Of a stretch of DNA of 64,000 nucleotides, positions 11,722-43,498 are shown piece by piece. The DNA comes from a virus (lineage: Duplodnaviria; Caudoviricetes): positions 160,001-224,000 of the IMG/VR virus record IMGVR_UViG_3300032312_001422. The stretch is one strand, 5' to 3'. The position numbers and the translations under genes were made by a program. Numbering within the stretch: the first letter of the stretch is position 1; each line of letters opens with the position of its first letter. A model generated the notes under the pieces. That model was not told where the DNA came from. It searched no databases and saw only the letters and a program-made list of their open reading frames with translations.

Positions 11722-12013
11722 CTTAAACCGTAAAGATCAATGGGAAAAGCTCTTAAAAGAAGTAACCAAAGAACAAGTACCCATTAATGTCTTACGTTAT
11801 ATTACTGTTAATTTAAAAGATGGCACCAGTGTAGATGTCAACGTTGCTGAGATGATTGACGAAGGTGCCGATCCTGCTGTAGTGGAAAAAATTATCAATG
11901 CCAAACTAGAAGCCTTAGATGACATCATAAAAGATGTCGATTTTCATATAAGCGTAGACAGCGTGGCCAAAGTAATTCAACCGTTCACAGACAACTTACT
12001 CAAAGACTTATGA
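11666..12013 (+). CDS. Hypothetical phage protein
   Basis: 115 aa with ATGA overlap into DHFR. Confidence 0.7.
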   Translation: MSKQQEPKKPRRPRSKRLNLNRKDQWEKLLKEVTKEQVPINVLRYITVNLKDGTSVDVNVAEMIDEGADPAVVEKIINAKLEALDDIIKDVDFHISVDSVAKVIQPFTDNLLKDL

Positions 12014-12510
12014 TAAATGCTATATTTGCCGTTGATTTCAACGGCGGTATGGGCCATAACGGAACGTTACCTTGGCCGCATAACGCTGAAGATTTACAAC
12101 ACTTTAAAAACTTGACTACCGGGCATGTAGTTGTCATGGGTCGCAAGACCTGGGACGATCCCAAGATGCCCAAGCCCTTACCCAATCGTACTGTGTATGT
12201 TGCCACCCATAGACCTGTGGCACATGCAAATCCGTTCAGCGGCGATGTGGAACAAAAACTGTTAGACCTAGAGCGTGAAAATCCCACTAAGAAAATATTT
12301 GTTATTGGTGGATCTGTTCTATTAGAAACTGCTCGTCCATTGTTTGATAGAATATACTTGACACACGTCAAAGGTACCTATCGTGCAGATACCAGAATAT
12401 ATGTAAAAGAGTTCTTGACTGGATTTCAACCTGTACGTGCTCAAGTAAGTCGAGATTTTCAATCAACATTTACGGTCTATGAGTCAATCTTCAAACGCAA
12501 AACAACCTAA
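12010..12510 (+). CDS. folA: Dihydrofolate reductase
   Basis: AVDFNGGMGHNGTLPW, DLQHFK, VVMGRKTW, PLPNR, FVIGG. Confidence 0.95.
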   Translation: MINAIFAVDFNGGMGHNGTLPWPHNAEDLQHFKNLTTGHVVVMGRKTWDDPKMPKPLPNRTVYVATHRPVAHANPFSGDVEQKLLDLERENPTKKIFVIGGSVLLETARPLFDRIYLTHVKGTYRADTRIYVKEFLTGFQPVRAQVSRDFQSTFTVYESIFKRKTT

Positions 12511-13264
12511 AATATTTGTTGCAGGATCTAGCTGGGCTCGTGGAGAATGGGCTGCTGGTAATCCTGTGGTACAACACGATGGTATAAAACAGTATTTTGC
12601 AGATGCAGGATACACAGTGGTAGATGCCAGTCAAGCTCGCAGTTACCACAGTCGTGTAATTGCATATCTAGATAAAAAACTAAAAGAACACTATAACAAC
12701 AACGATGTTGTTTTTTTTATTATGGCTGATCCCTTGTTGGATCTTATTATGCCAGAACTTGCTGGACTAAATCTCAAACGTGACAGTGATGCCAGTAACT
12801 TGCCCGGGTTTACCAAAACCATTAAAACAGCCGGTGGGTTAATTAATTTGGTACGTCAACAGCAAGATAGCATTTACAATCAACTTGACGCTGTGGCTAA
12901 ACAATACAATGTCAATGTACATTGCATAGGCGGAACTTACAATGTAAATACCAACATATCTAGCAAGTATTCTAACCTGTTGCCCACTGTGCCAAGTTGG
13001 ATTTATTTGTTAGCAGGGCAGTATCGAGAACACCCAGGAACGGATAATCCAGAGTTTGGTATAACGTATACCTGGGGCATTGACTATATTGACTTATCCA
13101 CATACACCGTAGAATTTGCCAATCAAGTTCGGCAAGAATTTGGTGTAATATCTGACAGCACTAGAATAATGGATGAACTTATTTTTCACCCAGATGGCTT
13201 GCATCCTAACAGAGAAGGTCATACAATACTATATAAACACCTAACAGACTTATTACACTTATGA
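12479..13264 (+). CDS. SGNH-like protein (copy 2), between folA and thyA
   Basis: IFVAGSSWARG ... DGLHPNREGH. Confidence 0.6.
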   Translation: MSQSSNAKQPKIFVAGSSWARGEWAAGNPVVQHDGIKQYFADAGYTVVDASQARSYHSRVIAYLDKKLKEHYNNNDVVFFIMADPLLDLIMPELAGLNLKRDSDASNLPGFTKTIKTAGGLINLVRQQQDSIYNQLDAVAKQYNVNVHCIGGTYNVNTNISSKYSNLLPTVPSWIYLLAGQYREHPGTDNPEFGITYTWGIDYIDLSTYTVEFANQVRQEFGVISDSTRIMDELIFHPDGLHPNREGHTILYKHLTDLLHL

Positions 13265-14172
13265 AACAATACCTAGACGCACTTCAACAAGTTCTTGAGC
13301 AGGGCGAGGTTCGAGACGACCGCACCGGTGTAGGCACTATCAGCCTGTTTGGTTTGCAACACCGTTATGATTTAAGTAAATCGTTTCCGGCAGTAACTAC
13401 TAAACGACTAGCATGGCGAGCTTGTGTGGGTGAACTGTTATGGATGATTGAAGGCTCAGGTAGTGAACGTAGACTGGCAGAAATTACACACGGTACCGCA
13501 GATGGTACAGCAACTATCTGGACTCCAAATGCACTTGCTCCGTACTGGAAACCCCGGGCCCAGTTTGAAGGTGACCTAGGTCGCGTGTACGGAGTACAAT
13601 GGCGTCGCTGGCGCACTCCTGTAGAACACAAAGCTGAAACATTTAAAGATGATTTTGGAAATATATATAATAGACAAGGGCTATTGCATATCAAAGAAGT
13701 TGATCAGCTACAAGAATTAATTGAAGGATTAAAGCAAGACCCGCATGGACGAAGACATATCATATCTGCATGGAACCCTGGTGAATTAGATCAGATGGCC
13801 CTGCCACCATGTCATGTGTTTGCACAATTTTATGTAAGTCAAGACGGCAAATTAAGTTGTCAAATGTATCAAAGAAGTTGCGACATGTTTCTAGGAGTAC
13901 CATTTAATATCGCAAGCTACAGCCTCTTAACGGCCATGATAGCTCAAGTGTGCGGCCTTCAGGTTGGTGAGTTCGTTCACGTTCTCGGCGATGCACACAT
14001 CTACTTGAATCATGTTGAACAGGTAAAAGAACAATTAACACGTGAACCATTACCTGCGCCAACTCTCTGGCTTAACCCAGACATTAAAGATATTACAAAA
14101 TTTACAATGACAGATATTCGTTTAGACGGATACCAATCACACAGTAGCATTAAAGCAGAAATGGCTGTGTAA
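13261..14172 (+). CDS. thyA: Thymidylate synthase
   Basis: DDRTGVGT, LPPCH, YQRSCDMFLGVPFNIASY, GDAHIYLNH. Confidence 0.97.
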   Translation: MKQYLDALQQVLEQGEVRDDRTGVGTISLFGLQHRYDLSKSFPAVTTKRLAWRACVGELLWMIEGSGSERRLAEITHGTADGTATIWTPNALAPYWKPRAQFEGDLGRVYGVQWRRWRTPVEHKAETFKDDFGNIYNRQGLLHIKEVDQLQELIEGLKQDPHGRRHIISAWNPGELDQMALPPCHVFAQFYVSQDGKLSCQMYQRSCDMFLGVPFNIASYSLLTAMIAQVCGLQVGEFVHVLGDAHIYLNHVEQVKEQLTREPLPAPTLWLNPDIKDITKFTMTDIRLDGYQSHSSIKAEMAV

Positions 14173-14897
14173 TGACTTACAGTTATGTTCTTGCCTTTGG
14201 CGATAGTACTACTGCTGGAGCCGAACTAATTGAAAATGCTTTAGACTTGGATTCTATTAAAAAATTAAGTTTCTCAAATCAGTTAGCTGATAAATTAAAC
14301 ATACCTTGTATTAATTTTGCATGGCCTGGCGGTAGTAATGATCGAAGCTTACGTTTGTTACCAGAGGCATTGTTAACTTATCCCAACAGTCTTGTATTAT
14401 TCACCTATACTAGCTTTGATAGAACTGAATTTTTTACTCTAGATTTGGAAATGCAACAAAATGATAGACACGCTGGATTTGGCAAATGTTGGACTCATGT
14501 TAAATCTAGTAAAAGACATCAAGAATTAAACACACAATATCTTAAAAATTTTTATTATGATCCAATTGATTATAATCGATACAGAACATACAATATGATG
14601 TTAAATGTACAACTACTGTGTCAACAATATGCTAAAAACTATTTGCAAATTTTTTTGTATAAGCAATTAATATCATCACCCGACTATCAACAAGTAATCT
14701 ACGATAATATAGATAAAGATCACATTTACAAATTTGATTATGCAACTGAAAAAATTTACTGGAAGCACAATAATCACGGGTTTGGCAGTTTAGACCATTG
14801 GGCAAAAAGCAAAGGATATAGTTTTTGTAAACACGGTCATATTGGGCAAATTGCACATGACTCTTTTGCAAATGAATTGTATAATAAGGTAACATGA
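14172..14897 (+). CDS. SGNH-like protein (copy 3)
   Basis: LAFGDSTTAG, AWPGGSN, GHIGQIAH. AT-rich. Confidence 0.6.
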   Translation: MTYSYVLAFGDSTTAGAELIENALDLDSIKKLSFSNQLADKLNIPCINFAWPGGSNDRSLRLLPEALLTYPNSLVLFTYTSFDRTEFFTLDLEMQQNDRHAGFGKCWTHVKSSKRHQELNTQYLKNFYYDPIDYNRYRTYNMMLNVQLLCQQYAKNYLQIFLYKQLISSPDYQQVIYDNIDKDHIYKFDYATEKIYWKHNNHGFGSLDHWAKSKGYSFCKHGHIGQIAHDSFANELYNKVT

Positions 14898-15841
14898 AAA
14901 TATTAGTTACTGGCGGAGCAGGTTTTATCGGACACGGTGTAGTTGCTAAACTAGAAAAACAAGGGCACGAAGTTTGTGTGCTTGATAACTTTACTAACTA
15001 TGGTGTCATCCCTGAAAGAGAAATTAAATCGCTACACGCAGAACGTTTGGCTCGACTTAAAACTACCAGCATACATCGTGTGGATATAAAAAACTATCAT
15101 GACGTAAGTCAGGTATTTGAAGAGTGCTTGCCCGATGTTGTGATACATTGTGCTGCTTTTCCTAGAGCCAAAGTGGTAGATCAAAATCCCGAAGAAGGAT
15201 GTGCTGTGCTTACCAGTGGGCTTGTTAACTTGTTACGTGCCAGCGAACGATGGAAGGTGCGTAGATTTGTTTATATCAGTAGTAGCATGGTCTACGGCGA
15301 CTTTGACATGATTGGCTACGAGGATATGCGATGTAGTCCAAAAGGCATCTACGGCATACTCAAACTTGCAGGCGAAGCATTAACACGAGATCATTGTGAA
15401 CGTGCCGGTATGGATCATGTTATACTACGTCCTTCAGCTGTGTATGGTCCACTTGATGTTGAGGATCGTGTGGTAAGTAAATTTTTAATTGCTGCAATAC
15501 AAAATAAAGAAATTGTGGTACACGGACCGGACGAGTTATTGGACTTTACTTTTGTTGATGATTGTGTGCGTGGTATTGTTAGAGCCGCTAATAGTTTTAA
15601 CAGTAGTGGACGTACTTATAATATTACTAGGGGCCAGAGTCGTACTTTATTAGAAGCTGCTGAACTGGCTATTGAAATTGCCGGTGGTGGTAGGATTAAA
15701 ATAGCTGATGCCAATCCCACATTTCCCAGTAGGGGAACACTGAGCAATATGCGAGCTGGGCAAGACTTTGGCTATCATGGGCGAGTTGATATAGAACAAG
15801 GTTTTCAAACATACTATGAGTGGCTACAGCGTACCGTTTAA
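14894..15841 (+). CDS. NAD-dependent NDP-sugar epimerase/dehydratase (extended SDR)
   Basis: TGGAGFIG, SSSMVYG, YGILK (YxxxK), RPSAVYGP, DFTFVDD. Confidence 0.92.
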   Translation: MKILVTGGAGFIGHGVVAKLEKQGHEVCVLDNFTNYGVIPEREIKSLHAERLARLKTTSIHRVDIKNYHDVSQVFEECLPDVVIHCAAFPRAKVVDQNPEEGCAVLTSGLVNLLRASERWKVRRFVYISSSMVYGDFDMIGYEDMRCSPKGIYGILKLAGEALTRDHCERAGMDHVILRPSAVYGPLDVEDRVVSKFLIAAIQNKEIVVHGPDELLDFTFVDDCVRGIVRAANSFNSSGRTYNITRGQSRTLLEAAELAIEIAGGGRIKIADANPTFPSRGTLSNMRAGQDFGYHGRVDIEQGFQTYYEWLQRTV

Positions 15842-16925
15842 CGGCATAGCCCGTCAATACCAAAATATCCGGGACGAGATCCTAGATGCCAGTGATCGTG
15901 CGTATCGTGGCGGGCAAGTATTAGATGGCCCGTATACGCAGATGTTTGAACGACATATGGCTCAACGATGCATGCGGCAATATAGTGTGGCAGTTAACTC
16001 TGGAACACAAGCATTGTTGTTTGCTCAGTTAGCTACTGCTCGAAGCAAAGGCATAGAAAAGATCATGATTCCCGGCATTAGTTTTGTTGCCACACTTAAC
16101 TCTGTGTTAATGGCCGGCAACGAACCTGTGTACTGTGATGTGGATCACAATGCCTTGCTAGATATAGAAACAATTGATTATGCCTTAGATGGACACATAG
16201 ATACTGTTATGTATGTTAACATGTTTGGCAATGTGTTAGACTACAATAAACTATTAAATGTTACCAAGTTTTTCAACGAAGATGTCAAGATAATTGAAGA
16301 TGCTGCACAAAGTTTTGGTGCCAGCTACAACGGTGTTCCATCAGGCAAACTAGGAGACGTAAGCGTACTGAGTTTTGATCCCACAAAAAATCTAAACAAT
16401 TACGGGTCAGGTGGAATGATACTCACAGACGACTATGATATCTATCAATTTGCTTTGGCTCTGAGGGACAATGGCAAAGTATTAAACCACGACTTTGCCG
16501 GCACCAACAGTAAGATGAGTGATTCAGACTGTGCTCAAATGTTAGTCAAGCTAAAATATTTTGATGGGTGGCAACGACGTCGTGCAGAAATTGCAGACTT
16601 TTATATAGAGCACTTGACTGACTGGGTAGATGTGCTGTTGCCCAATCAGGATGTAGAACATGCATGGCACAAGTTTGTTATTCGTACTGGATCACGTAGT
16701 GCCATGCAAGGCATGTTGGCCAGCAAAGGCATTGAAACTAAAATACACTATGAGCAACCGTTGTTTGAACATGCGGTAGGGTGGGACTATGTGGATTATG
16801 CTAGAGATATCATGCGTGGTAGCACAGCACACAGCAAAGAAGCATTGAGTCTGCCTATCTATCCTGAAATGACGGACACCGAAGTAGAACTTGTGGTTGA
16901 GTCTATCGAGGCTTACTTAAATTAA
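15816..16925 (+). CDS. DegT/DnrJ/EryC1/StrS family PLP sugar aminotransferase
   Basis: VNSGTQAL, SFVAT, IEDAAQSFG, SFDPTKNL (PLP lysine), LSLPIYP. Confidence 0.92.
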   Translation: MSGYSVPFNGIARQYQNIRDEILDASDRAYRGGQVLDGPYTQMFERHMAQRCMRQYSVAVNSGTQALLFAQLATARSKGIEKIMIPGISFVATLNSVLMAGNEPVYCDVDHNALLDIETIDYALDGHIDTVMYVNMFGNVLDYNKLLNVTKFFNEDVKIIEDAAQSFGASYNGVPSGKLGDVSVLSFDPTKNLNNYGSGGMILTDDYDIYQFALALRDNGKVLNHDFAGTNSKMSDSDCAQMLVKLKYFDGWQRRRAEIADFYIEHLTDWVDVLLPNQDVEHAWHKFVIRTGSRSAMQGMLASKGIETKIHYEQPLFEHAVGWDYVDYARDIMRGSTAHSKEALSLPIYPEMTDTEVELVVESIEAYLN

Positions 16926-18738
16926 AACGTTCTCTTAACCACTGCCAGTCAAAACTGAATTTTAATCGTTCGTAGTCGCCGCCAACTTCTGTGTAATACA
17001 CCACAGCATCTTTTGCTCCACAAATACTCCAATTGGCAAAATCTCCATTGGCAATGGTTAGCCAAACATTAAGTCTATGCTCAGTTTCTACAGTAGGCGC
17101 CGTGGCCATAAAATGTTGTAGTTTGATCACTTCACGAAAAGCAGTTCGCCAAGTCATCCACGGTGACTGATTGTAATGTGCTACACCACTTAGTATAGGA
17201 ACACTCTCGTGTGGTTGACTCAGGGTAAAGTCTATGCCTGGTGTGTTATTCTCCAGTACCAATCGTTTATTATAAGCAATAACACCTTGGTGTCCATACT
17301 CTAATCCGTTTACAGGATTACGAGCATTAAAAATATAATGTTTGGGTTCTTGGAAGTAATCGGGTAACCAGGTATGCCAAGGAAAAGTATTGCCCAAAAC
17401 TTCTAGTTTAGCAAACACAGCAAAGAACCAAGGTGTTGAGCTTTGTCTAGCAGCTTCTTGATAGGCAGCTGTTCGTCCGTTTATGCCACGTACCCATTTT
17501 GCATGATAGTTACTTTGGTAACACAAGTGATCGTACCATTTTTCTTCGTCAGGTTCGCCATTGCTGATATACACTATGTCAAGGCAATCACGGCCTCCTA
17601 GGTAGTCGTTTAACCTCGGTTTCGCGTCCTCAATGTAGGGATAATCGTAGATTTGTGTACGCAAATCCTCCTTGATATCTCGAGGTACTATCGCAGTAGC
17701 ACCTGCGGTACTAATTCGCACTACAGCACGGTCTTTCTTGGTCCATAAGCAAGGGTTATCGTGTAACACCAGATCTTTTTGGTTGGTGAACACAGCGTAC
17801 GGAGTTTCAAACTTGTAGTTTTTGATTTCGGTTACCAAGTCATCGGTTGCGTATTGATGCACTGGCATACCAAAACGTTCTACCTGCTGATCGTCACAAT
17901 AGTTGATAACATTGAACCAATCCAGTAACTCTAACTCAAACATCTGTTGGGTAAAACTGGGAACATGTATATAAAATGTATCTCCACGACGTTGATTGCC
18001 TGTGGGAAAGCAATGTATCATTTCTCGCTGTGCTTCGCTAGGATGCCAGGTAAAGTCAAACTGTGTATAATCACATACGCTACTAATGATCCATACATAT
18101 TCTGTAGTGGCCATGTTCATAATACGCTTGAACACGTTGAGATGGTTGTCCACATATCTTGTTCGCTTGATATCAGGATGATCTAATTTTAACAAATCAA
18201 ATTGATGACGTGCTATGCCGCCATTTAAGAAGTCCATGTAGAATATTTGTGTGGCACCGGCACGTATGCGTTGATCAGTCATGTACTTGACGCCGGCTGT
18301 GCCTGGATATACAGGGCCACCTTCACGTTGCCATTGTGTGGGGAAACGATATTCATAGTCAGGTTCAGTACGATCTGGATGCCAGCTATAATCAAACTTG
18401 CTATCGTCTATGTTGTCTGGCACTTGCCACAGGGCTCGCTCAGGACGACGTCGAACACTTTGTTCTGTGTGAAAGTGCCATTGTTGATTTTGATGAGTGC
18501 GTCGATTGGCCAGATATACTTCGCCGTTACGTTGATGCTGGCTAGGCCACACATGCAAGTGATCAGTTTCCCAAGGTACTGGCACGTATTCAAAGTCGAA
18601 GCCTGTGTAATCATTGCCCCCATAAATATACCAGTAGTGTGTAGTCTTACATTTATTAGCGGCATCTTCCAAAGAAGTCGCAGGTTGTTCAAAAGCAAAC
18701 AAGCCCGGTTTATCGCCAAAGTAAAAAACATCAAACAT
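16903..18738 (-). CDS. 611 aa protein of tandem degenerate GT-A-like domains, homologous to 40332..41231
   Basis: C-terminal domain (DIVYISNGE, ARNPVNGLEYGHQG, TWRTAFRE) aligns by eye with 40332..41231. The FDF/Y-x-W-H/V-P motif recurs in the N-terminal part. Confidence 0.55.
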   Translation of the reverse strand: MFDVFYFGDKPGLFAFEQPATSLEDAANKCKTTHYWYIYGGNDYTGFDFEYVPVPWETDHLHVWPSQHQRNGEVYLANRRTHQNQQWHFHTEQSVRRRPERALWQVPDNIDDSKFDYSWHPDRTEPDYEYRFPTQWQREGGPVYPGTAGVKYMTDQRIRAGATQIFYMDFLNGGIARHQFDLLKLDHPDIKRTRYVDNHLNVFKRIMNMATTEYVWIISSVCDYTQFDFTWHPSEAQREMIHCFPTGNQRRGDTFYIHVPSFTQQMFELELLDWFNVINYCDDQQVERFGMPVHQYATDDLVTEIKNYKFETPYAVFTNQKDLVLHDNPCLWTKKDRAVVRISTAGATAIVPRDIKEDLRTQIYDYPYIEDAKPRLNDYLGGRDCLDIVYISNGEPDEEKWYDHLCYQSNYHAKWVRGINGRTAAYQEAARQSSTPWFFAVFAKLEVLGNTFPWHTWLPDYFQEPKHYIFNARNPVNGLEYGHQGVIAYNKRLVLENNTPGIDFTLSQPHESVPILSGVAHYNQSPWMTWRTAFREVIKLQHFMATAPTVETEHRLNVWLTIANGDFANWSICGAKDAVVYYTEVGGDYERLKFSFDWQWLRERFNLSKPR

Positions 18739-19903
18739 GTATAACTTATCCAGTCATTACGAAAATATATTCCAACACCTACAAACTATTATAACAGATC
18801 CTAGGGTGGTTTACCTACACCCTTTTGGATCAACTCTACCAGAAAATCTAGAATTTCGAAGAAATGACATTGGTGCAGGACAGTTCCGTGGACCAATGTT
18901 TATCTTTTACGATCAAGAGCCCCTGGACCTTGAATACAACCGACCTGTGTTTGAAGCCATTACTGCTCTCGAACAAAAACCGTTTATTCTAGTATCCACT
19001 GAACGTGACAGTGATGAAGCCACTCGTATCTGTGAAGAGTTTCCATTTTTGCACATCAATTATTTCTTTCATATATTTGCTGCACACGATTGGTTCCGTG
19101 GACATCAGATGCTTCCAGGAATACAACTACCGCATGAACGTACATTAGAAAAAACATATATATCGTTTAATCGACTGACCAGTAATCGTCGTATCTATCG
19201 TAGTTTGCTAGTCAACGAGTTGTACAAAAACAATTTACTAGAACACGGCTATGTGAGTTACAGTCACCATTGTCCAGATGATGGAGCATTTGATGACAAC
19301 CTACGCCGAGGAGTTCCTGAATATGAGTTTGACTCTGCATATATCGAAGAAGCTATTGCTAACATAAAACAAATACCAGAGTTGCGTATAGACTTTGCTG
19401 GACAAGACATTCCCAATCAAAGTATGCTGCTGAGTCCTATGACAGAGCTAATGAAGAGCTTTGTATTTTTAGTAACAGAGACTTGCTTCTTTCAAACAAA
19501 AACACACTTGACAGAAAAGATATTTAAACCCATTGTGTTACGTATGCCGTTTGTACTTGCCGGCTGTGCTCATAACTTGGCATATTTGCGTAGCTATGGA
19601 TTTCGTACATTCGGTGATTACTGGGACGAAAGTTACGACACCATAGAAGATCCTGTACTACGCATCAAAGCTATCACACAGGTAATAAAAACCGTTAGCG
19701 AATTAAGTACAGAACAACAAATGACCATGTTGCTAGACATGCAACCTATATTGGAACATAACTATAATTTGTTCAATGATCCTGCGTTTATCAAACGTGA
19801 ATGGGATCATTTAATAAATTCTATCACAGCAATAGATCGTGCGTTTCAGCGTATACCCCCATACCGACTAGACGTTAGGACTGGTTTACCCGTCCCCATT
19901 TAA
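18737..19903 (+). CDS. GT10/GT-B-like putative glycosyltransferase (copy 1 of 5), inverted relative to the cluster
   Basis: FLVTETCFF...LTEKIFKPI...PFVLAG...GFRTFGDYWDESYD resembles the ENS...TEK donor motif of GT10 fucosyltransferases. Confidence 0.55.
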   Translation: MYNLSSHYENIFQHLQTIITDPRVVYLHPFGSTLPENLEFRRNDIGAGQFRGPMFIFYDQEPLDLEYNRPVFEAITALEQKPFILVSTERDSDEATRICEEFPFLHINYFFHIFAAHDWFRGHQMLPGIQLPHERTLEKTYISFNRLTSNRRIYRSLLVNELYKNNLLEHGYVSYSHHCPDDGAFDDNLRRGVPEYEFDSAYIEEAIANIKQIPELRIDFAGQDIPNQSMLLSPMTELMKSFVFLVTETCFFQTKTHLTEKIFKPIVLRMPFVLAGCAHNLAYLRSYGFRTFGDYWDESYDTIEDPVLRIKAITQVIKTVSELSTEQQMTMLLDMQPILEHNYNLFNDPAFIKREWDHLINSITAIDRAFQRIPPYRLDVRTGLPVPI

Positions 19904-34444: not shown

Positions 34445-34447
34445 TAA

Positions 34448-35404: not shown

Positions 35405-35921
35405 TCAAAAATCCAGAAATCTGTAATGTAAATTTATTTTGTAATCCAGCATTGGCACTAAGATGTTCTACAGAACTGTCCCATTGCAATCCTTCACCGG
35501 CACGCCAGTGTGTACTGACTTCATTGTCGTACTGTATAAAATGTCCCAGTTTCCAATCTTCCAAATAGATATTGGATCGAACTTTGATTTCTTTTCTGTC
35601 AGGATAATTTTTATTAATTTGAAAAAATGTATCTCTATGTAACGGAATCATGCAACCAGGTTCTTGTAAAATACTACTGACCATAATGACTTCCATGTTC
35701 AGCTGGCGGCCAAATTCTTCGTAGTCTACTTGTGTACGATCCCACCAAAGCTGATGTATTTTGGTATTGTCATAATTGAATGTGTTTGGGTAGCCGCCGT
35801 ACTTTTGATAGATATCATCAAGTTCTTTTTTCTGATGAGTCATGCAACTACCTTCGTGCTGGTTGTAGTCAGCTGCCAGTATAGTGGAAAAATCGTAATC
35901 TAAATTTATTTTATTAATCAT
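35397..35921 (-). CDS. 2OG-Fe(II) oxygenase / Asp-Asn beta-hydroxylase-like cupin
   Basis: PGCMIPLHRD (HxD), WRAGEG, EHLSANAG, TLQISG. Confidence 0.7.
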   Translation of the reverse strand: MINKINLDYDFSTILAADYNQHEGSCMTHQKKELDDIYQKYGGYPNTFNYDNTKIHQLWWDRTQVDYEEFGRQLNMEVIMVSSILQEPGCMIPLHRDTFFQINKNYPDRKEIKVRSNIYLEDWKLGHFIQYDNEVSTHWRAGEGLQWDSSVEHLSANAGLQNKFTLQISGFLIE

Positions 35922-35922
35922 A

Positions 35923-36804
35923 TTAAAACCTTGTGGGTATTTTACTAGGGTGCCAAAACTTTGTTAAATCTTGTCCTTGTAATATCAATGCTGTGGCTTG
36001 CTCAGTCCACTCTTGTGTTGCTGGATCTATTTGAATGTCTAGTGCAACTTTGTTTAGATATTCTAAATATTCGGTTGGTATTGGATGCGTGTCGTAACGA
36101 TGTAAAAATCTATTGCTAAACAGATGTGTTTCGTTTATTTCACGGTGAATTTCTGCATCCAAATTGGTAAAATCTTGATTGGTGAATTGTTTCCACGTGG
36201 GCCAACTATCCCCACGTTTTATTTCATATTCTTCTTTTAATTTTGCGTTGTCCAAATAGCCTTTTCGGCTGTACCAGTCGCAATTAAAAATTACTTCATA
36301 AACACTAGGAGCAACTGTGGCCAGTTCTTCTCTGTATAAATTACTTATCTTATTGTCTATGCTAAAAATTTTAAACACATTATCGTCAGGCACATTAAAT
36401 GGCACAATACTAAAGAAATAGTACTGGCAACCTATTGCATCTAATACAGCTTTGGCGCCAGCCAGGTGTGCTGTGTCACGCAACAAGTATCCGGTTGGAT
36501 CGGTAAATTTCTTAACAAAATTCTCATCGTAGTCGGTTTGATTGTATATGCTTCCGGGAGTTAGCCACTCGCCCCCAACATAACGATCCTCACGGCCAAT
36601 ACTGCTCCACATGATCATTACTACATCATCTTGGGTTATCTTGTTACGCTTGTGACATTCCATTAGGCTGTAAAAGATAAAACTATTGCCGGCGCCGGGT
36701 TGCCCCCAATTTTGATAATGAGTGTACTGTCGTGCCACTATGTCAGCCCAGGTAGGATGTTTTGATCTGGTGAACGAGCAACCGAAAGCAAAGAATCTTG
36801 TCAT
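35923..36804 (-). CDS. SGNH-like protein (copy 8)
   Basis: AFGCSFT, GQPGAGN, DTHPIP. Confidence 0.6.
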   Translation of the reverse strand: MTRFFAFGCSFTRSKHPTWADIVARQYTHYQNWGQPGAGNSFIFYSLMECHKRNKITQDDVVMIMWSSIGREDRYVGGEWLTPGSIYNQTDYDENFVKKFTDPTGYLLRDTAHLAGAKAVLDAIGCQYYFFSIVPFNVPDDNVFKIFSIDNKISNLYREELATVAPSVYEVIFNCDWYSRKGYLDNAKLKEEYEIKRGDSWPTWKQFTNQDFTNLDAEIHREINETHLFSNRFLHRYDTHPIPTEYLEYLNKVALDIQIDPATQEWTEQATALILQGQDLTKFWHPSKIPTRF

Positions 36805-37637
36805 TTTGTTAGTACGTTATTATAATGTAAAATCACACTTTCGTCATCCTGGGCAGTTGGACACATGGTACATACCTGATGTGGTCGACCATAATTGTTT
36901 AGGAATGCCGCTATATCAGAATCTGGGCTGTCCGGAGTAATGTACTTGCCTTTGTATGGATCCCATGCAGGATCTACGTTGCCAAAACGATCCAGTGTTT
37001 GTTCTAGGCCGCCCAAGGTACTGCACTTGTACATGCGACCATTGAACATCAACGGACATTTCTGTTGCATACAGATATTGAAACTGTCTGCCGGGTTTGA
37101 GTCAAACGGCATCATGTTAGGATAGTCGTTCCGGTAGTACTTGATAAATGTCAGTGGACGATTGACTTGAAAACGCAAACCATTTGTAGTCTTGTATCGG
37201 TATATACCAAACTCGTACACAGGTTCCCACTTGTACATTGAGAATATTTTAGCTATTACGTTTTCAACACGTTCGCTGTGTTGATGCACAGTAATTTTAA
37301 AAACAAAGTTGCCCACTTCGTGTGCTGTTTCTACAACATCCAAGTGCCGGTCCAATAGCTCTCCATTGGTACTAAAGCGTATAGGGCTTGTGGGTAATAA
37401 CTCACGTAGGCCACGTATCCACAGTTTGAGTTCAGGGTTGATCAAGGGCTCACCTCCCATGATACCGAAGTCTTCAATTGCCATTCTGGGCAACCACGAT
37501 TCTATTTCTTGACGGCCGTCTGCCCAAGGAACATAACCTGTGTGTTTTAAGTCAGCATAATTACTGCACCCAACACAACTCAGGTTACAAAATTGTGTAA
37601 CCATCATTTCTACAAAAGGTAAGTGATGTTTAGTCAT
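36801..37637 (-). CDS. Radical SAM enzyme (short, C-terminal Cys cluster)
   Basis: CNLSCVGC, MGGEP, FSTNG. C-terminal CMQQKC...KCS...CTMC. Confidence 0.88.
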   Translation of the reverse strand: MTKHHLPFVEMMVTQFCNLSCVGCSNYADLKHTGYVPWADGRQEIESWLPRMAIEDFGIMGGEPLINPELKLWIRGLRELLPTSPIRFSTNGELLDRHLDVVETAHEVGNFVFKITVHQHSERVENVIAKIFSMYKWEPVYEFGIYRYKTTNGLRFQVNRPLTFIKYYRNDYPNMMPFDSNPADSFNICMQQKCPLMFNGRMYKCSTLGGLEQTLDRFGNVDPAWDPYKGKYITPDSPDSDIAAFLNNYGRPHQVCTMCPTAQDDESVILHYNNVLTK

Positions 37638-38676
37638 TGAATGTGTTCTGTATTTGTTGATGTGTTAGTGCCATGAATACATTATAGTTATGATCAAGTA
37701 CGGATTGCATATTGTTTAGTGTTGTAATTAGTTTTTCTGGACTCCATAGACCAATGGTGTTGATTAATTTTAATATTTCTCGTACACGCCACTGCATACC
37801 ATATTCATCATAACCTTCGTCCCAAAATTCATTGAATGTTTGAAATCCTAAGCGACGCAGGTTAGCCAAATGATTTCTACCACCCATGGTAATAAATGGC
37901 CGACGTGCCAGGATAGGACGCCAAGTTTTTTCTGTGGCAAAACAAACCTCATCACGCACAAATGTTTCATGCACAATGTCAACAAATATATTATTATAGT
38001 ATTGTAATATATTAAGATTTGCTGGCAATTGTATAGGATAACAATCATCCTGTTTGATATATGTAGACATGTTTTTGATTGCTTCTATTTCTTCAGGAAT
38101 AAATTGAGGACAGGTTTTTAAAAATTCCACAGCCACGTCAATTTGATCACATTCCATTTTAACTAAATCTTCTAATCCTACAAAATCACAAAGGCCATCA
38201 TTTTTTACCAAATAGTGTGTGCCAATGCCAGTATTATATGTTTGGAATGTTTTGTCTCTAAAGTTTTTATGCAATGCTGATGCTATCCACAATCTATTCC
38301 AGTTGCTTTTTCCAATAAAATGTCCAAAATGTAAATTGGGGTGTTGTCCAGTATCTACTGAGTTATTTGTCAGCCACTTTTGTATAACTGGAAGTTCGAA
38401 CCAGGCACCAGCATCTTTTACGATTGTGTACTCAGGGTGTTGCTCGATCATGTTGCCTGTACGTATACTAATGTTCTGTTTATTGTATCCGGTGTGTTTG
38501 CAAAACGCATCTAGATATCTGTACAATCCGCATCCTTCCAAACTTGATCCTTCTGGGACAACTGTTAATTTTGCAGAGTGTTTGTTGTTTAAGCAATCGT
38601 ACAGGTGCATAACCAACAAGTCTTTACGCCAAAACTTATTGTCATTGATGCCAACGTGATATTCTTTATTCAACAT
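37630..38676 (-). CDS. GT10-like putative glycosyltransferase (copy 4)
   Basis: DIVHET...ATEKTWRPI...PFITMG...GFQTFNEFWDEGYD. Confidence 0.55.
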   Translation of the reverse strand: MLNKEYHVGINDNKFWRKDLLVMHLYDCLNNKHSAKLTVVPEGSSLEGCGLYRYLDAFCKHTGYNKQNISIRTGNMIEQHPEYTIVKDAGAWFELPVIQKWLTNNSVDTGQHPNLHFGHFIGKSNWNRLWIASALHKNFRDKTFQTYNTGIGTHYLVKNDGLCDFVGLEDLVKMECDQIDVAVEFLKTCPQFIPEEIEAIKNMSTYIKQDDCYPIQLPANLNILQYYNNIFVDIVHETFVRDEVCFATEKTWRPILARRPFITMGGRNHLANLRRLGFQTFNEFWDEGYDEYGMQWRVREILKLINTIGLWSPEKLITTLNNMQSVLDHNYNVFMALTHQQIQNTFND

Positions 38677-39628
38677 AGGTTATTTGAGTAGTAAATTTTT
38701 TACTTAATAGCAACTCGTAGTTGTGATCAAGTACGGATTGCATGTGATTGTACATATCTTGTAATTCTGCGTGTGACTTGTTGGCCAATGAATCGATCAA
38801 TGTCAGTATTTTTTTGTATCGATGTTCTGTGTTGTGTCCATCATAGCTTTCGTCCCAAAATTCATTAAATGTACGAAATCCCATTTGCCGCAAGTGTATT
38901 AAAAAACATTTTGGACCCATTACAATAAACGGTTTTTTCATCAGCATAGGTCTTACAGTTTTTTCTGTAGGATAAAATGAACGTCCCGCAACAAAAGTTT
39001 CTACTACCACATCAATTAAAAAATCAGTATAAAATTCACAGAGCTGATCAGTGTGATTAACTACAGTATCGCCAATTGTACACCCATCCACAGTTTCCAA
39101 CTGTACAGGAAAATCTTTATAACAATTCATAAAAAATTGTAACGATTCTGGATCTACTTCAAATAGTTTTTCTAATTCAAACATTGGTCGCTGATCTTTA
39201 TTGTGCGGATCGAATCTAAAATTTAACAATGTTTTGTTGTAATATTTGGTATGCAAATAACTGGCCAATCCCACTCGGGGCCAAGTTGGACGATTGTAAA
39301 AAACACCAAATTGTTTTGCACCTGACCATGCGTGATACTGACTATAGTCTATTGTTTCTGGCACTACAAAATACTGAAACGCATCTCTATGTACAACTAT
39401 TTTATAGTTATTATTTGACTCTACTATATTGTTTGTACATATTTCAACTGATTTAAAAGAAAAAAAATCCAATAATCGATACACTCCCAAATTTTCTAAA
39501 CATGCACCTTCAGGTATGGCAACATGAATTGATTTTCCTTGCCAATCTATCAGGAATTGTACCAATTCATCATAGTTCCAGATTGTGGTATCATTTATGT
39601 TGAGAATAACTTCGTTTTCAAGTTTCAT
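38666..39628 (-). CDS. GT10-like putative glycosyltransferase (copy 5)
   Basis: DVVVET...PTEKTVRPM...GFRTFNEFWDESYD. Clearly paralogous to 34448..35404 along its length. Confidence 0.55.
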   Translation of the reverse strand: MKLENEVILNINDTTIWNYDELVQFLIDWQGKSIHVAIPEGACLENLGVYRLLDFFSFKSVEICTNNIVESNNNYKIVVHRDAFQYFVVPETIDYSQYHAWSGAKQFGVFYNRPTWPRVGLASYLHTKYYNKTLLNFRFDPHNKDQRPMFELEKLFEVDPESLQFFMNCYKDFPVQLETVDGCTIGDTVVNHTDQLCEFYTDFLIDVVVETFVAGRSFYPTEKTVRPMLMKKPFIVMGPKCFLIHLRQMGFRTFNEFWDESYDGHNTEHRYKKILTLIDSLANKSHAELQDMYNHMQSVLDHNYELLLSKKFTTQITYVE

Positions 39629-40335
39629 ATATAGTTATTTTTTATCAAATGATCGTGCAACTGGTCTGCATATTGTTGGTGTGCAATTGGCATTGGATGT
39701 AACGTATCATCAAATGCATTGAGTTTTTTAGCAACACCATGCAAACATACATCAGTAAAAAAGTTTTTATCATCAATCATATTATATAAACTGTCACATT
39801 CTTTTATGCGTGATAAAGGCCGGTACGGTATAAAAACATAAGGAATATTTGTTGCTTTTAATGTGTTTTGTAAAGATATTATTTTTACAATAGTAGAAAA
39901 AATATGGTCTTTAAGGCCAGTTACTTTATAGTACTCATGTACCACGCGACCTAGGCTATCATCTTTTTTGCGATTTAAATGACCTCCCCCAAACACCCAA
40001 TTTTTTTGTACGTAGTCTTGATCATTGATTGGAAATATTTTTTTACTGGGCCAGTCATTTTGCTGACTTTCATAGTATGATGTAGTTTTAATGTCGCTAA
40101 ATTGGTGAATATTTCTAACTCTGAAGTCAAATCTTTCTGCATAAGACCACATAATCAATACAAGGTTGTATGGTCGCTGACTGATTTCAGCCACAGTAGC
40201 TTCATGTATATATGTGTTGCCAGCACACGCCATTGATAAATTTACAATGTTACAATTTGGTATTTTTTCCTGTAACAGGTAAGGCCAGGACCCTTCTCCG
40301 CGGGAGACTGAACTTCCATTAATTAGTATATTCAT
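39625..40335 (-). CDS. SGNH-like protein (copy 9)
   Basis: INGSSVSRG, SMACAGN, DTLHPMPIAH. Confidence 0.6.
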   Translation of the reverse strand: MNILINGSSVSRGEGSWPYLLQEKIPNCNIVNLSMACAGNTYIHEATVAEISQRPYNLVLIMWSYAERFDFRVRNIHQFSDIKTTSYYESQQNDWPSKKIFPINDQDYVQKNWVFGGGHLNRKKDDSLGRVVHEYYKVTGLKDHIFSTIVKIISLQNTLKATNIPYVFIPYRPLSRIKECDSLYNMIDDKNFFTDVCLHGVAKKLNAFDDTLHPMPIAHQQYADQLHDHLIKNNYI

Positions 40336-41231
40336 TCTCTAACCATTGGTCCTTGATTTTTAAATTGGCTCTTATAGTGATGCTTAAAAAATTTACTTTC
40401 CTCAGGATCCATGTCCACAATAGGTAAACCAAGACGTGTGCGTAGGGCTTCTCCTACACCCCGGCATTGGTCCGGACCATCTTGTTCAAAACTTTTCCAC
40501 AACATTGCTAGGATATCAAAATCCTGTACTTGTCGATGATCCCATCCTTCCAACATCATCATGTATGTGCCAAGTCGTGCTCCGTAAATGGCCCAAAAAC
40601 CATTTTCAACATCTGCTCCTACGCTTTGCCAAATGCACAAATTATCATAGTTGCGAGTATTGACACGACTTTCAAATTCCTGCAAGGAAATCTTTGCTCC
40701 ACGGTCCAGTGCCATCTTCACACCCTCGCGGAATCCGGCTCGCCATGCCTGATAAGGTGTTGCATTGGGATAGGTAGTTGAGTAGCAATCATTCATTGAC
40801 CAATAGTCAGGATAAAAACAAAACTCTACATCATTTTCTGCAGACCCATCTGAGGCTTCGTGTGTACGCATTGAATAGATAAAGTCCTTGGTCCAACAAC
40901 TCATTCCCCCGTTGCCGTATAAAAGACCATTGATAATGTTACGAGCTTTCCAACGAAACACACAGTCATTACTACCACTATCCAGTTGAAGTTGGAGGTT
41001 GAAAAAAGCGGGATCAGGAACATTGTCCCCATCAATGATAATAAACCGATCGGTATCGCTGTTATCAGCAGCCGCTTTATGTGCGGCATCCGATCCTTTA
41101 ACCCCGTCCACTCGCTTGGCCCAGGGCACCATGTTTTGTATTTTAATCCAATTAGTTTCTTTATTAGGTTCATCATAAGTTAGGTATATGCAGTCTAGAT
41201 CTGCAACGTCAATTAATTGTTTTTCTGTCAT
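40332..41231 (-). CDS. GT-A-fold putative glycosyltransferase
   Basis: DCIYLTYDEP, FIIIDGDN (DxD), ARNIINGLLYGNGG. Confidence 0.55.
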   Translation of the reverse strand: MTEKQLIDVADLDCIYLTYDEPNKETNWIKIQNMVPWAKRVDGVKGSDAAHKAAADNSDTDRFIIIDGDNVPDPAFFNLQLQLDSGSNDCVFRWKARNIINGLLYGNGGMSCWTKDFIYSMRTHEASDGSAENDVEFCFYPDYWSMNDCYSTTYPNATPYQAWRAGFREGVKMALDRGAKISLQEFESRVNTRNYDNLCIWQSVGADVENGFWAIYGARLGTYMMMLEGWDHRQVQDFDILAMLWKSFEQDGPDQCRGVGEALRTRLGLPIVDMDPEESKFFKHHYKSQFKNQGPMVRE

Positions 41232-41577: not shown

Positions 41578-42409
41578 ACCATTCTTTCATTTCGGCTGTG
41601 ACAAAATCTTTTTCAAAATAGTGTAACGGTTGTAGTTGGTTTACGTTGTTGATACGAATCATACCCGAATCGAACTCTGTAACCAATTGGTCAGTTACTG
41701 GTGTAGTTTCTTCTATACCATTGATTGCTGGCTTTAGATGTACAAAGTTTAAGAAATCCATGCTGGGCATTGTACAAGTTTCTTGACCAACCATAACAGC
41801 AGCCAGGGCGTACATCACATCTGTGCTGGGTTCAGTCTCAACACAATGTTTAAGACCTGCACGTACATACTCCCAATTCTGTTGTATATACTGTGCAGCA
41901 TCAAAGAACTGTTTGGCTTCTTGACTAAATCTAAAATACATCAAGCCGTTATACACGTCTGGCAAACGGTTTGCATCAAACAGTTCTCTATACCAGCGTA
42001 CAGTACTGTTGATACCTAAATAATTTTTGCATCCGTGGCTTAGACAAACGTTCTTTAATCTAAATGCTGTCCACCAATGATCAATTGATCGTGTAAACAG
42101 TAAGTCAGACTCTAGTTTAATAGTTTCTTTAAATGGTGTAAGTCGAAACACTTGCCATTCGTTCGCAAACTTTCTAGTACTGGCAGAGTCATTATGATCC
42201 ACGGGAAGATCAATAACATAATCAAAAACACGACGATGACGTTCATTTACTTTCTCCTGAGTAGCAGTATCAACAATGACTGCATATTTGTTTTGTGTTT
42301 GAGTTGCTTTGATATTCAATGCTTGTATATAGGCCAATTCAAGATAATCTATATCCTGTGTGTTTTGTGCAAAAGTTACAAAACCTTGTTGTTCTTTATG
42401 CTGTGACAT
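41558..42409 (-). CDS. GT8-like putative glycosyltransferase
   Basis: GFVTFA...DYLELA, TPFKETIKLESD, YNGLMYF. Confidence 0.6.
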   Translation of the reverse strand: MSQHKEQQGFVTFAQNTQDIDYLELAYIQALNIKATQTQNKYAVIVDTATQEKVNERHRRVFDYVIDLPVDHNDSASTRKFANEWQVFRLTPFKETIKLESDLLFTRSIDHWWTAFRLKNVCLSHGCKNYLGINSTVRWYRELFDANRLPDVYNGLMYFRFSQEAKQFFDAAQYIQQNWEYVRAGLKHCVETEPSTDVMYALAAVMVGQETCTMPSMDFLNFVHLKPAINGIEETTPVTDQLVTEFDSGMIRINNVNQLQPLHYFEKDFVTAEMKEWYESRIA

Positions 42410-43184
42410 TGTTAATAAACTCTTTAAAATTATTGCTTTGTAAATATTGTTTGCTCATTACGTGCATGTTCATTCGTGGAACCACATAAGCAGTTTTCTG
42501 ATCTTTGATAATTACTCGATTGCCTTGCAATACAATTGATTCAATTGGTTGTAGTATGTTCAGCATGGGTCCTGGTATACTGACATCAGAAACAGCAAAC
42601 CCATTTAGTATTATGTCGGCCATGGCAAATGCATAATCGTTTCTGTAACTTCTACTTTCCGCATTAAACAATTCTCTGTAGTAGTGATAGTTGGCTTCAA
42701 TTCGTTGCACCAAGTCAAAAAATACCTTGGCACGACTGGTTTTTCTAAATGCAAAAACCGTGGCCCACACATAAGGTAAACTGTGAGCACCCATAACACC
42801 AGGTACATATTCATCATTTAAACTTCTGGCCGATCGTTGCAACAGGTAATCCCAGGGCAAATCAAATATTTTTAACAAGCCGGCATCTTGTACCACATAG
42901 TCCACATCAATAACCAAGGTTTCGTCATATGGGCTTAACTCATAACAGAGATTGCGACCAAAATTTTTCCATTCAACTGGTTGACCAAGATCCACATCAT
43001 GTCTGTAGTTATGCCAGTTTTTATCAGCCCTGTGATCTTCAGTGATGATGGTATAAGGTAAATCTAATACCCGAGCAGCCAATGCAACAGTTTGCTCAGC
43101 AATAGCCGTATAGTCTGTGGTTGCTGTGTTGATAGCAAACGCAACAATACCTCTAGATTTTTCTGATCTGTTTGAGTTCTGCAT
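42396..43184 (-). CDS. GT8-like putative glycosyltransferase
   Basis: GIVAFA...DY, SPYDETLVIDVD (DxD), WATVFAF, RNDYAF. Paralogue of the adjacent gene. Confidence 0.65.
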   Translation of the reverse strand: MQNSNRSEKSRGIVAFAINTATTDYTAIAEQTVALAARVLDLPYTIITEDHRADKNWHNYRHDVDLGQPVEWKNFGRNLCYELSPYDETLVIDVDYVVQDAGLLKIFDLPWDYLLQRSARSLNDEYVPGVMGAHSLPYVWATVFAFRKTSRAKVFFDLVQRIEANYHYYRELFNAESRSYRNDYAFAMADIILNGFAVSDVSIPGPMLNILQPIESIVLQGNRVIIKDQKTAYVVPRMNMHVMSKQYLQSNNFKEFINNVTA

Positions 43185-43467
43185 GTTCTTGATGCCAGCG
43201 GTTCATTACTTTTTGATAGTGTTCTCTACACAAAGTCAACAATTCAATTCGATCAACTTCAATGGGATTGTGATATGTATCTTCAAGATAAACTGTGTTG
43301 TTGGGCCATGTGGTTAAAAAGCCAATCAACTCTGTGGTAACAAAAAACAAGCCACCGTTATAGGCAACGTGTAGGTCTGTTAGAATCTTTTCACGTAGGA
43401 TTTGTTTGTTGATTTGATAATCGGTGGCAAGACGCACTTGCTCAACAAGTTGATTGATATCTGACAT
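43153..43467 (-). CDS. Hypothetical protein, first gene of the modification operon
   Basis: 104 aa directly downstream of the 43499-43527 promoter. Confidence 0.75.
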   Translation of the reverse strand: MSDINQLVEQVRLATDYQINKQILREKILTDLHVAYNGGLFFVTTELIGFLTTWPNNTVYLEDTYHNPIEVDRIELLTLCREHYQKVMNRWHQEHAELKQIRKI

Positions 43468-43498
43468 AGTTAAAATAGATAGAATAAAGGCATAGTAT

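Follow-up and report, generated by a model that had tools for sequence, protein, structure and literature searches.

A jumbo-phage gene island beside the tail-fibre module, very probably for the synthesis and tailoring of a glycan, with fibre-module proteins as candidate acceptors

The window, the whole stretch of 64,000 nucleotides that was analysed, covers bases 160001-224000 of the IMG/VR record IMGVR_UViG_3300032312_001422 (Duplodnaviria; Caudoviricetes), a single viral contig of 288,815 bp with a CheckV completeness of about 80 %. Positions 12010-43467 of the window carry an island of coupled genes that very probably builds and tailors some glycan. Our leading reading, held tentatively, is a phage-borne, all-soluble glycan assembly and tailoring line which is tied to the tail-fibre (host-recognition) module and has the phage's own fibre-module proteins as acceptor. 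A preliminary description of the window had proposed such a cluster, with a product that decorates the virion or remodels the host surface. The phage-borne glycan synthesis and tailoring cluster is retained here; the virion as target is only the leading guess, in view of a separate, non-late promoter and of relatives in O-polysaccharide loci. The island is a large and widespread phage investment, taking up about one tenth of the genome and recurring in more than 80 viral contigs. By one conserved left-flank protein the phage groups with the jumbo phages PA5oct, Atu_ph07, Phosso and 121Q (33-44 % identity).

The gene map reproduced the described stretch of about 31 kb of coupled genes. A minus-strand run of 27 genes, nearly all overlapping the next, extends from 43467 down to 20084 in the orientation of the fibre genes, as had been stated before; features of the window given below are on this strand unless marked (+). 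According to the list of open reading frames (ORFs), a plus-strand block at 12010-16925 encodes, in this order, DHFR, an SGNH-like protein, ThyA, a second SGNH-like protein, a short-chain dehydrogenase/reductase (SDR) and a DegT protein, and a divergent pair, 16903-18738 and 18737-19903 (+), lies between block and run. The start codons of this pair overlap by 2 nt (CATG, 18736-18739), which leaves no room for an intergenic promoter. All-against-all BLASTP grouped five GT10-like proteins, eight SGNH-like proteins, the pair starting at 41558 and 42396, and the protein at 40332-41231 with the C-terminal third of a 611-aa protein. This paralogy, together with synteny conserved in 83 related loci, places the island far beyond chance. 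DHFR (12010-12510, +) and ThyA (13261-14172, +; 359 bits) fall within the island coordinates and are ordinary nucleotide metabolism, not glycan genes. The GC content across the island (0.34-0.45) does not differ from that of the flanks or the rest of the window, and a megablast search with 24 kb of it revealed no cultured phage sharing DNA with the island.

All of the six radical S-adenosylmethionine (radical SAM) enzymes described earlier were recovered. Five with an N-terminal twitch domain (N_Twi_rSAM) exceeded the cut-off of 170 bits of the NCBIfam model NF033640 over the full model, with 277-398 bits and E 1e-82 to 4.5e-119: TwE (33155-34444; 277 bits), TwD (31725-33074; 283 bits), TwC (29641-30984; 398 bits), TwB (28437-29654; 337 bits) and TwA (26077-27387; 292 bits). 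The sixth, a small protein of 278 aa (36801-37637), lacks the twitch domain and matched PF04055 with E 4.5e-13. Invariant in the five twitch enzymes are the four N-terminal cysteines C44, C63, C104 and C107, then C158, C162 and C165 in a CxxxCxxC motif, and GGEP; in three of the five, Pfam places a SPASM-like domain ahead of the radical SAM domain. Each of them has a predicted auxiliary cluster site. The whole genome holds seven NF033640 genes above the cut-off (outside the window, e.g., 5319-6365 and 133131-134264) and at least five further radical SAM matches, an unusually high load for one phage. Compared to the PDB, the radical SAM profile returned generic matches only (viperin, MoaA, SkfB, BlsE). 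A literature search found no reaction for any NF033640 member, no paper on N-terminal-twitch radical SAM enzymes and none on jumbo phages that combine radical SAM and glycosyltransferase (GT) genes.

The bacterial surroundings of related genes give the strongest indication at hand that the island's most conserved enzymatic part acts on glycans. Among Pseudomonadota the NF033640 family is rare: of 401 genomes three have it, and one of these is a bin with apparent phage contigs. Five of seven bacterial contexts showed or suggested a connection with the synthesis of polysaccharides. In one genome, four copies stand in tandem next to WbsX, a pair of methyltransferases (a TylF-type sugar O-methyltransferase among them), RmlC and RmlD, and a single 854-aa ORF of this locus (8579-11143) fuses Wzt, with its ABC_tran and Wzt_C domains, to an N-terminal-twitch radical SAM enzyme. 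Wzt is the O-polysaccharide export ATPase that reads modifications at the chain end. In a second context, a prophage-like stretch, the gene lies beside a GT2 and a GDP-mannose-dehydratase-like SDR; in a third it is surrounded by a GT2, a GDP-mannose-dehydratase-like gene that is split, a methyltransferase of the FkbM type and a large GT1/GT2 protein. A fourth has a methyltransferase adjoining the radical SAM gene and Wzm, Wzt and ManC about 6 kb away. On the fifth, a metagenome contig (8339-18508), three GDSL/SGNH genes and a 2-oxoglutarate (2OG)-Fe(II) oxygenase gene flank the radical SAM gene and no GT occurs in 20 kb; a partnership of radical SAM and SGNH proteins is found outside phages, too. 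Searching the bacterial context loci with the island proteins by tblastn gave no further shared partners, and a single-protein scan yielded only contigs of metagenome-assembled genomes (MAGs) that resemble binned phage.

The earlier count of nine GTs (five GT10-like, two GT8-like, two GT-A-like) stands on fold, profile and motif; the assignments are calls at the level of the fold, GT-B for the five GT10-like proteins and GT-A/GT2-like for the last two, not family memberships. Searches in Pfam (to E 10), PHROGs and NCBIfam were empty for all nine, apart from a weak match of one GT8-like protein, C283, to phrog_1903 of unknown function (E 0.0012). The GT10-like paralogs are located at 18737-19903 (+), 27377-28447, 34448-35404, 37630-38676 and 38666-39628 and share an invariant TEK motif. 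By BLASTP the first reached E 1e-15 to 2e-21 to three paralogs and 2e-5 to 27377-28447, the most divergent member (E 2e-5 to 2e-4 to three paralogs); 34448-35404 and 38666-39628 are 48 % identical. Structure prediction, proposed in the preliminary description as a check, was applied with AlphaFold2 to two GT-like proteins (38666-39628 and 40332-41231) and gave a GT-B and a GT-A fold. The model of 38666-39628 had a mean predicted local distance difference test (pLDDT) score of 94.8 and matched GT-B glycosyltransferases with GT10 fucosyltransferases ranked top, so that its nearest structural neighbours are in GT10. None of its 497 metagenomic homologs has a Pfam domain, the Pfam GT10 model PF00852 found nothing in the genome, a profile of the five paralogs returned nothing from the PDB sequences, and tblastn detected no homolog in cultured phages. 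An hhalign comparison of a 36-sequence profile with nine bacterial GT10 proteins was not significant (E 0.15, only 40 columns); its columns pair ..ETFV..PTEK.. of the phage proteins with the GT10 motif ..FEN..YxTEK. Since PF00852 is silent and hhalign gave E 0.15, we regard these proteins as GT-B enzymes resembling GT10 and not as demonstrated GT10 members.

The remaining four GT-like proteins are of the GT-A type. A profile of 25 orthologs of C283 (41558-42409) matched glycogenin-1, a GT8 enzyme, with E 1.8e-6 over query residues 4-112, the nucleotide-binding half up to the DxD position, and the phage LESD aligned with MDAD of glycogenin; the Pfam GT8 model did not match. Its paralog C262 (42396-43184) has an invariant DSD (D93 and D95), is linked to GT8 via this motif and a BLASTP match to C283 (E 9e-7) only, and its own profile found nothing in the PDB. 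For C299 (40332-41231) the model (pLDDT 90.6) has a GT-A fold in residues 6-160, with a Rossmann-like nucleotide-sugar domain and the DxD after strand 4, as in GT2-type enzymes; the structural matches include A64R of the chlorovirus PBCV-1 and R699 of mimivirus. The DGDN motif with D67 and D69 is nearly invariant, and a profile search of the PDB with C299 was empty. The 611-aa protein (16903-18738) is related to C299 in residues 386-593 (E 5e-10), its C-terminal GT-A domain; the N-terminal domain has FD(F/Y)xWxP repeats, and Pfam and PHROGs gave no match. The novel GT families occur almost exclusively on viral contigs: they are virus-specific and invisible to current libraries.

Enzymes for sugar supply and decoration agree in most points with those described before. 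The SDR (14894-15841, +; PF01370, E 4e-44), an epimerase or dehydratase of nucleoside diphosphate (NDP)-sugars, has as nearest solved structures UDP-GlcA 4-epimerases (6zl6, MoeE5) and a dTDP-glucose 4,6-dehydratase (E 1e-28 to 1e-23). The DegT-family pyridoxal-phosphate-dependent sugar aminotransferase (15816-16925, +; PF01041, E 1.7e-75) was closest to a glutamine:scyllo-inositol transaminase (E 1.8e-55), followed by the 3-aminotransferases QdtB, WbpE and NtdA. The record contains no RmlA/GalU-type nucleotidyltransferase; the donors must therefore start from host NDP-sugars. In the last gene of the operon (20084-20941), reported as a fusion with an APS kinase, a P-loop kinase (PF01583, 30.3 bits at a cut-off of 21.1) is joined to an NMNAT-like nucleotidyltransferase (residues 175-246) with HDGH and ISATKIR motifs of the HxGH/ISxTxIR type. 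The carbamoyltransferase of the NodU/CmcH/TobZ type (21468-22949) scored above the cut-offs for Carbam_trans_N (131.7 bits, E 5e-38) and Carbam_trans_C (164 bits, E 3e-48); with 136 bits against a cut-off of 1000 for the NodU equivalog model it is a member of the family and not NodU itself. Eight SGNH proteins had been listed and form one BLASTP family: 12479-13264 (+), the most divergent paralog, situated between DHFR and ThyA (Lipase_GDSL, E 9e-4); 14172-14897 (+; DUF6071, E 3e-4); three in tandem at 22915-23565, 23540-24184 and 24248-25030 (mutual BLASTP E 3e-30 to 7e-7, weak GDSL/DUF6071 matches); 30977-31735; 35923-36804; and 39625-40335. All Pfam GDSL and DUF6071 matches were below the gathering scores. 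In the alignment of the eight only G7, S9, N46 and H192 are invariant besides Met1, and these supply the Ser of block I, Gly of II, Asn of III and His of V that characterise the SGNH/GDSL superfamily. Two 2OG oxygenases had been proposed as well. One candidate, a cupin-like protein of 174 aa (35397-35921) and possibly of the 2OG/Asp-Arg hydroxylase type, had a weak match below the cut-off (Asp_Arg_Hydrox, E 0.0075), whereas no island candidate for the second gave any match in Pfam, NCBIfam or PHROGs.

No credible transmembrane segment was present in any island protein. The absence of a polymerase, flippase and exporter, noted earlier for the window, extends to the whole 289-kb record, the only polytopic proteins of which are an MFS sugar transporter, TauE, Bax1-I, a CHASE2 adenylate cyclase and a desaturase; from this list an initiating transferase and a ligase are missing as well, and no protein like Wzx, Wzy, WecA or WbaP was found in the record (about 80 % complete). 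In record coordinates the MFS sugar-type transporter lies at 80845-82110 and the TauE-like anion exporter at 156515-157477, 2.5 kb before the window. A captured lipopolysaccharide (LPS), O-antigen or capsule locus was rejected as leading reading: no island protein spans the membrane several times, and the approximately 80 % complete record lacks an initiating transferase, any flippase or exporter of the ABC type, and any polymerase or ligase. The earlier argument against such a capture is thus sustained, also by the almost exclusively viral GT families and a composition equal to that of the rest of the window.

Synteny across related metagenomic jumbo phages, suggested as a check in the preliminary description, revealed a fixed core next to the fibres. 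Eighty-three related loci of uncultured jumbo phages were collected from contigs with orthologs and from an IMG/VR scan, and the island genes were mapped onto them. The fixed order is a 261-aa protein, one to three fibre genes, the fibre-module protein C331, C104, the two GT8-like proteins, C122 and C299. C299 is the most conserved gene of the island, present in 83 of 83 loci with a median identity of 75 %, against 36 % for C331 in 74 loci; C283 was detected in 80 loci, C104 (43153-43467, 104 aa, the first operon gene) in 68 and C122 (41209-41577, 122 aa) in 61. Such a conservation, far above that of fibres and C331, is easier to reconcile with a conserved donor or acceptor site than with surface glycans that are specific to a host. 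In about 67 loci the next genes are those of TwE, TwD, TwC, TwB, TwA and a 361-aa protein (U361). The constancy of this order indicates that the five radical SAM genes are old orthologs and not recent duplicates. The accessory genes vary: 21 loci have GT10-like genes, and those for SGNH proteins, the small radical SAM enzyme and the carbamoyltransferase come and go. In distant loci (C299 identity 46-48 %) the core still adjoins the fibres and the radical SAM genes are missing.

Among cultured phages, only the Ralstonia phage RsoM2USA has the core. Its homologs of C104, C262, C283 and C299 share 29-39 % identity with the proteins described here; ORF354, the C104 homolog, to ORF350 are followed by one twitch radical SAM enzyme (ORF349) and a second GT-A protein. 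A second module (ORF199-203, 123.4-129 kb), near DHFR, encodes a carbamoyltransferase, two SGNH proteins, a twitch radical SAM enzyme and a further SGNH protein in this order. ORF199 is 46 % identical to the island carbamoyltransferase, and ORF202 and ORF349 are homologs of TwD/TwE. Both modules are annotated as hypothetical throughout (ORF348-358 and ORF199-203). An SDR epimerase gene, ORF358, sits among virion genes whose products were confirmed by mass spectrometry. RsoM2USA is a reduced version, with two radical SAM enzymes, no GT10-like protein by tblastn and modules 90 kb apart; ahead of its C104 homolog are TAAATA boxes and a hairpin, where the phage analysed here has a sigma70-like promoter. 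Virion proteomics of RsoM2USA covered only the ten most abundant bands, including ORF356, ORF359 and the giant ORF361 beside the core module (PMC8504454).

Upstream of the core, three tail-fibre genes (44593-46596, 46624-48600 and 49992-51569) matched PHROG tail-fibre families with E 3.8e-25, 3.4e-29 and 8.7e-14, and a Peptidase_S74 domain is present. Their first 200-290 residues are common (35-41 % identity) and the downstream parts differ; the genes resemble interchangeable receptor-binding modules on one attachment domain. Between fibres and core is C331 (43545-44540), a Ser/Thr/Asn/Gly-rich protein of 331 aa, in which serine plus threonine amount to 27.5 % vs 14.2 % genome-wide (fibre-module proteins, 24-28 %). 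It has conserved blocks (GYGQ, ARYFFNAGG, NTWGTPTI) and no cysteine, and an Atlas search connected it to no named family. C331 is a candidate glycan acceptor.

The T4-type late promoter TATAAATA is absent from the window. Two other signals characterise the genome: TTGACA-17-TATAAT, often perfect and mostly ahead of plus-strand non-structural genes, and a TAAATA box 23-32 nt before start codons, dense in the structural region at 224-288 kb. The latter is the real late signal of this genome, and it precedes two of the fibre genes by 30 and 32 nt. C331 and C104 are separated by 77 nt (43468-43544), which contain TTGACA-17-TAAACT, with the -10 element inside a hairpin (GGCATAGT...ACTATGCC). Promoter and hairpin recur in most of the related loci compared, often with a better -10 element, with compensating changes in the stem, sometimes with a T-run behind the hairpin and sometimes with a terminator after C331; the region could be a regulated leader of the glycan operon. 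The conserved sigma70-like promoter makes the island its own transcription unit, which in this lineage is probably not a late one. The argument of a simple co-transcription with virion genes therefore falls.

The following sequence of events would be in accord with the genes. The SDR and the DegT protein, the latter of the 3-aminotransferase type, would turn host NDP-sugars into amino and uronic-type donors, and the kinase-nucleotidyltransferase would activate a further group. Two GT8-like enzymes and one GT-A enzyme, the fixed core, may start an oligosaccharide on a conserved acceptor, to be lengthened by the variable GT-B enzymes. By abstraction of hydrogen atoms the five twitch radical SAM enzymes could oxidise, epimerise or otherwise rework given residues, SGNH proteins may add or remove O-acyl groups and the carbamoyltransferase would O-carbamoylate. 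As in chloroviruses and mycobacteriophages, C331 and the fibres would receive their glycans in the cytoplasm, ahead of assembly. Tentative support for the virion as target comes from the core-fibre link, unbroken over a large evolutionary distance, from the SDR among the virion genes of RsoM2USA, from the wholly soluble machinery and from the position of a conserved core beside fast-evolving, Ser/Thr-rich fibre-module proteins. The most specific version, in which radical SAM, SGNH and carbamoyltransferase proteins tailor an oligosaccharide that the core GT8-like and GT-A enzymes attach in the cytoplasm to fibre-module proteins, is possible but doubtful. In that event a virion glycan tailored by radical SAM enzymes would be seen in a bacteriophage for the first time, and NF033640 would have its first assigned function.

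Several observations weigh against a glycan line directed to the fibres. Glycan and acceptor are predicted from genes alone, the GT assignments consist of fold and motifs with the Pfam GT10 and GT8 models silent, and the record is only about 80 % complete. Two bacterial contexts are uninformative, one in a nif cluster and one in a sulfatase neighbourhood without glycan genes, and the fifth is flanked by SGNH and 2OG genes only. The island has no TAAATA late box; its sigma70-like promoter belongs to a class found mainly before non-structural genes, so that co-expression with the fibres would not be implied. A non-late promoter does not exclude virion glycosylation; the glycan genes of chloroviruses are expressed early. 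Finally, GT8/GT10-type enzymes and the bacterial radical SAM relatives typically belong to the assembly of LPS and O-polysaccharide on the cytoplasmic side of the membrane, where host export would be usable.

Remodelling of the host envelope is a possible alternative that we consider rather doubtful. At the inner membrane's cytoplasmic face, the soluble enzymes would have lipid-linked intermediates of the LPS core or O-polysaccharide as substrates, host MsbA, Wzm-Wzt or Wzx would export the product, and the changed surface would block superinfection or the adsorption of progeny to debris. Bacterial N-terminal-twitch radical SAM genes in O-polysaccharide loci of the ABC-transporter type, with one fusion to Wzt, fit this scheme, as do the conserved sigma70-like promoter without late box and an accessory GT and SGNH content that co-varies with the fibres; GT8/GT10-type enzymes are classical peripheral transferases of LPS and O-antigen and have no transmembrane helices. 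A latent period of 270 min in RsoM2USA leaves time for such a process (PMC8504454), and the host recognition clusters of pelagimyophages were read as O-chain modification (PMC7029224). On the other hand, the record encodes none of the membrane steps from initiation to export, the core is highly conserved across habitats and probably hosts, whereas host O-antigens vary, and it stays attached to fibre genes even in distant relatives. The separate promoter, the O-polysaccharide relatives and the pelagimyophage reading together keep the host-surface option of the preliminary description alive.

A soluble or secreted small glycoside, for instance aminoglycoside- or aminocyclitol-like and used against host or competitors, is unlikely. 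The glutamine:scyllo-inositol transaminase as best solved relative of DegT (E 1.8e-55), a carbamoyltransferase of the NodU/TobZ family, the action of BtrN-type twitch radical SAM enzymes on aminocyclitols, the MFS sugar transporter and the bacterial relative accompanied by SGNH and 2OG genes only would suit such a product. The nine GTs far exceed the use of such pathways, the fixed link to the fibre genes would stay unexplained, and BtrN is no close relative of the radical SAM enzymes, whose twitch domain is N-terminal. As a leading reading an aminocyclitol pathway was rejected since the record has no 2-deoxy-scyllo-inosose synthase or other DHQ-synthase-like cyclitol synthase (PF01761).

Hypermodification of the DNA, with GT-B enzymes glycosylating a modified base and the other enzymes tailoring the glycan, is very improbable: the early-type operon promoter and the nearby DHFR and ThyA, which would suit it, are outweighed by a location in the fibre module, by TEK being a donor-binding motif of GT10 and not a feature of β-glucosyltransferases (BGT), and by a record that holds neither a hydroxymethyl-pyrimidine synthase nor Tet/JBP and whose single ThyA-family gene, beside DHFR, scores as a true thymidylate synthase. 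DNA glycosylation of the T4 α- or β-glucosyltransferase (AGT/BGT) or TET-linked kind was rejected as leading reading for want of the hydroxymethyl-pyrimidine-forming enzyme in the record. The missing cyclitol synthase, second ThyA and Tet/JBP thus weaken the aminocyclitol and the DNA-glycosylation readings. Equally improbable is a crosslinking of fibre-module proteins by the radical SAM enzymes in the manner of RiPPs (peptides made on the ribosome and modified after translation), with the GTs independent of it; SPASM/twitch enzymes are often peptide maturases and C331 and the radical SAM set co-occur, but the bacterial NF033640 members lie within polysaccharide loci, with one of them in a fusion to Wzt, the island has no precursor-like small ORF or RRE domain, and C331 contains no cysteine.

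Chloroviruses, mimiviruses and mycobacteriophages are known to glycosylate their virions, and the GT genes of the latter adjoin structural genes. The island resembles the systems of PBCV-1 (A64R), mimivirus (fibril glycans) and mycobacteriophages in soluble virus-encoded GTs and sugar-modifying enzymes that come without membrane export machinery. It differs from them in being known from its genes only and in its own, non-late promoter, and its scale far exceeds that of mycobacteriophages with their one to few GT genes. We know of no radical SAM tailoring in chlorovirus, mimivirus or mycobacteriophage glycosylation. The Wzm/Wzt-dependent O-polysaccharide loci with terminal modification are similar in that relatives of the same radical SAM family occur there together with sugar methyltransferases, SDR enzymes and GT-A/GT-B transferases; unlike them, the phage has no Wzm/Wzt, initiating transferase or ligase, and its GT families are virus-specific. 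Glycans on capsid and tail of mycobacteriophages are credited to Freeman et al. 2023, as cited in PMC12619734. Neither this moraphage paper (PMC12619734) nor a preprint on the envelopes of huge phages treats a cluster of the present kind.

Closest in genomic setting is the host recognition cluster of pelagimyophages and cyanomyophages, a variable region of tail fibres and GTs (GT8 commonest), LPS-type sugar genes and radical SAM cassettes, described without experiments (Zaragoza-Solas et al. 2020, PMC7029224). Like the island, it links GT and radical SAM genes to fibres and belongs to the structural part of the genome in large myophages from aquatic habitats. The host recognition cluster lies between VrlC and gp14 of T4-like phages, whereas the present phage belongs to the jumbo group of PA5oct, Atu_ph07 and RsoM2USA and its island has, in contrast to that cluster, a fixed six-gene core, five orthologous NF033640 enzymes in constant order, eight SGNH proteins and GT-B proteins of a novel kind. 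A tblastn search detected no homologs of the island in cultured pelagiphages. New at this locus are the fixed six-gene core, the set of five NF033640 enzymes in constant order, the GT families invisible to libraries, and the repeated association of radical SAM with SGNH and carbamoyltransferase proteins, also in bacteria and RsoM2USA. If the product coats the fibres, virion glycosylation would extend from giant viruses and mycobacteriophages to jumbo phages of Gram-negative bacteria and involve a new radical sugar chemistry; if it remodels the host surface, the island would be the counterpart of serotype conversion in a lytic phage. In both cases the island is relevant to the ways in which host range is set and competition avoided by aquatic phages, and the reduced version in RsoM2USA makes the question testable at the bench.

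Several island proteins are without family assignment. C104, C122, C331, U180 (20935-21477, 180 aa) and U361 (25008-26093) had no match in Pfam at E 10, PHROGs or NCBIfam. U361, always next after TwA, follows it in 27 related loci within reach of the flank, has 64 invariant columns, and was not matched in the PDB or the Atlas either. MAGs labelled Polynucleobacter, Flavobacterium, Chitinophagaceae and Halobacteriovoraceae each had several contigs with these phage radical SAM genes; the Polynucleobacter MAG gave ten matches, and its contigs are 74 % identical in one of the genes. These contigs are either contamination of the bins by jumbo phages or a hint at the host. Polynucleobacter and Ralstonia, the host genus of RsoM2USA, are both Burkholderiaceae, a weak hint that may reflect binning artefacts. 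A Gly-rich protein (48642-49988) is encoded among the three fibre genes. Beyond them, a giant ORF of at least 3913 aa (52257-63998) runs off the end of the window; its only Pfam hint is a weak CBM_5_12 match, and its counterpart in RsoM2USA is ORF361.

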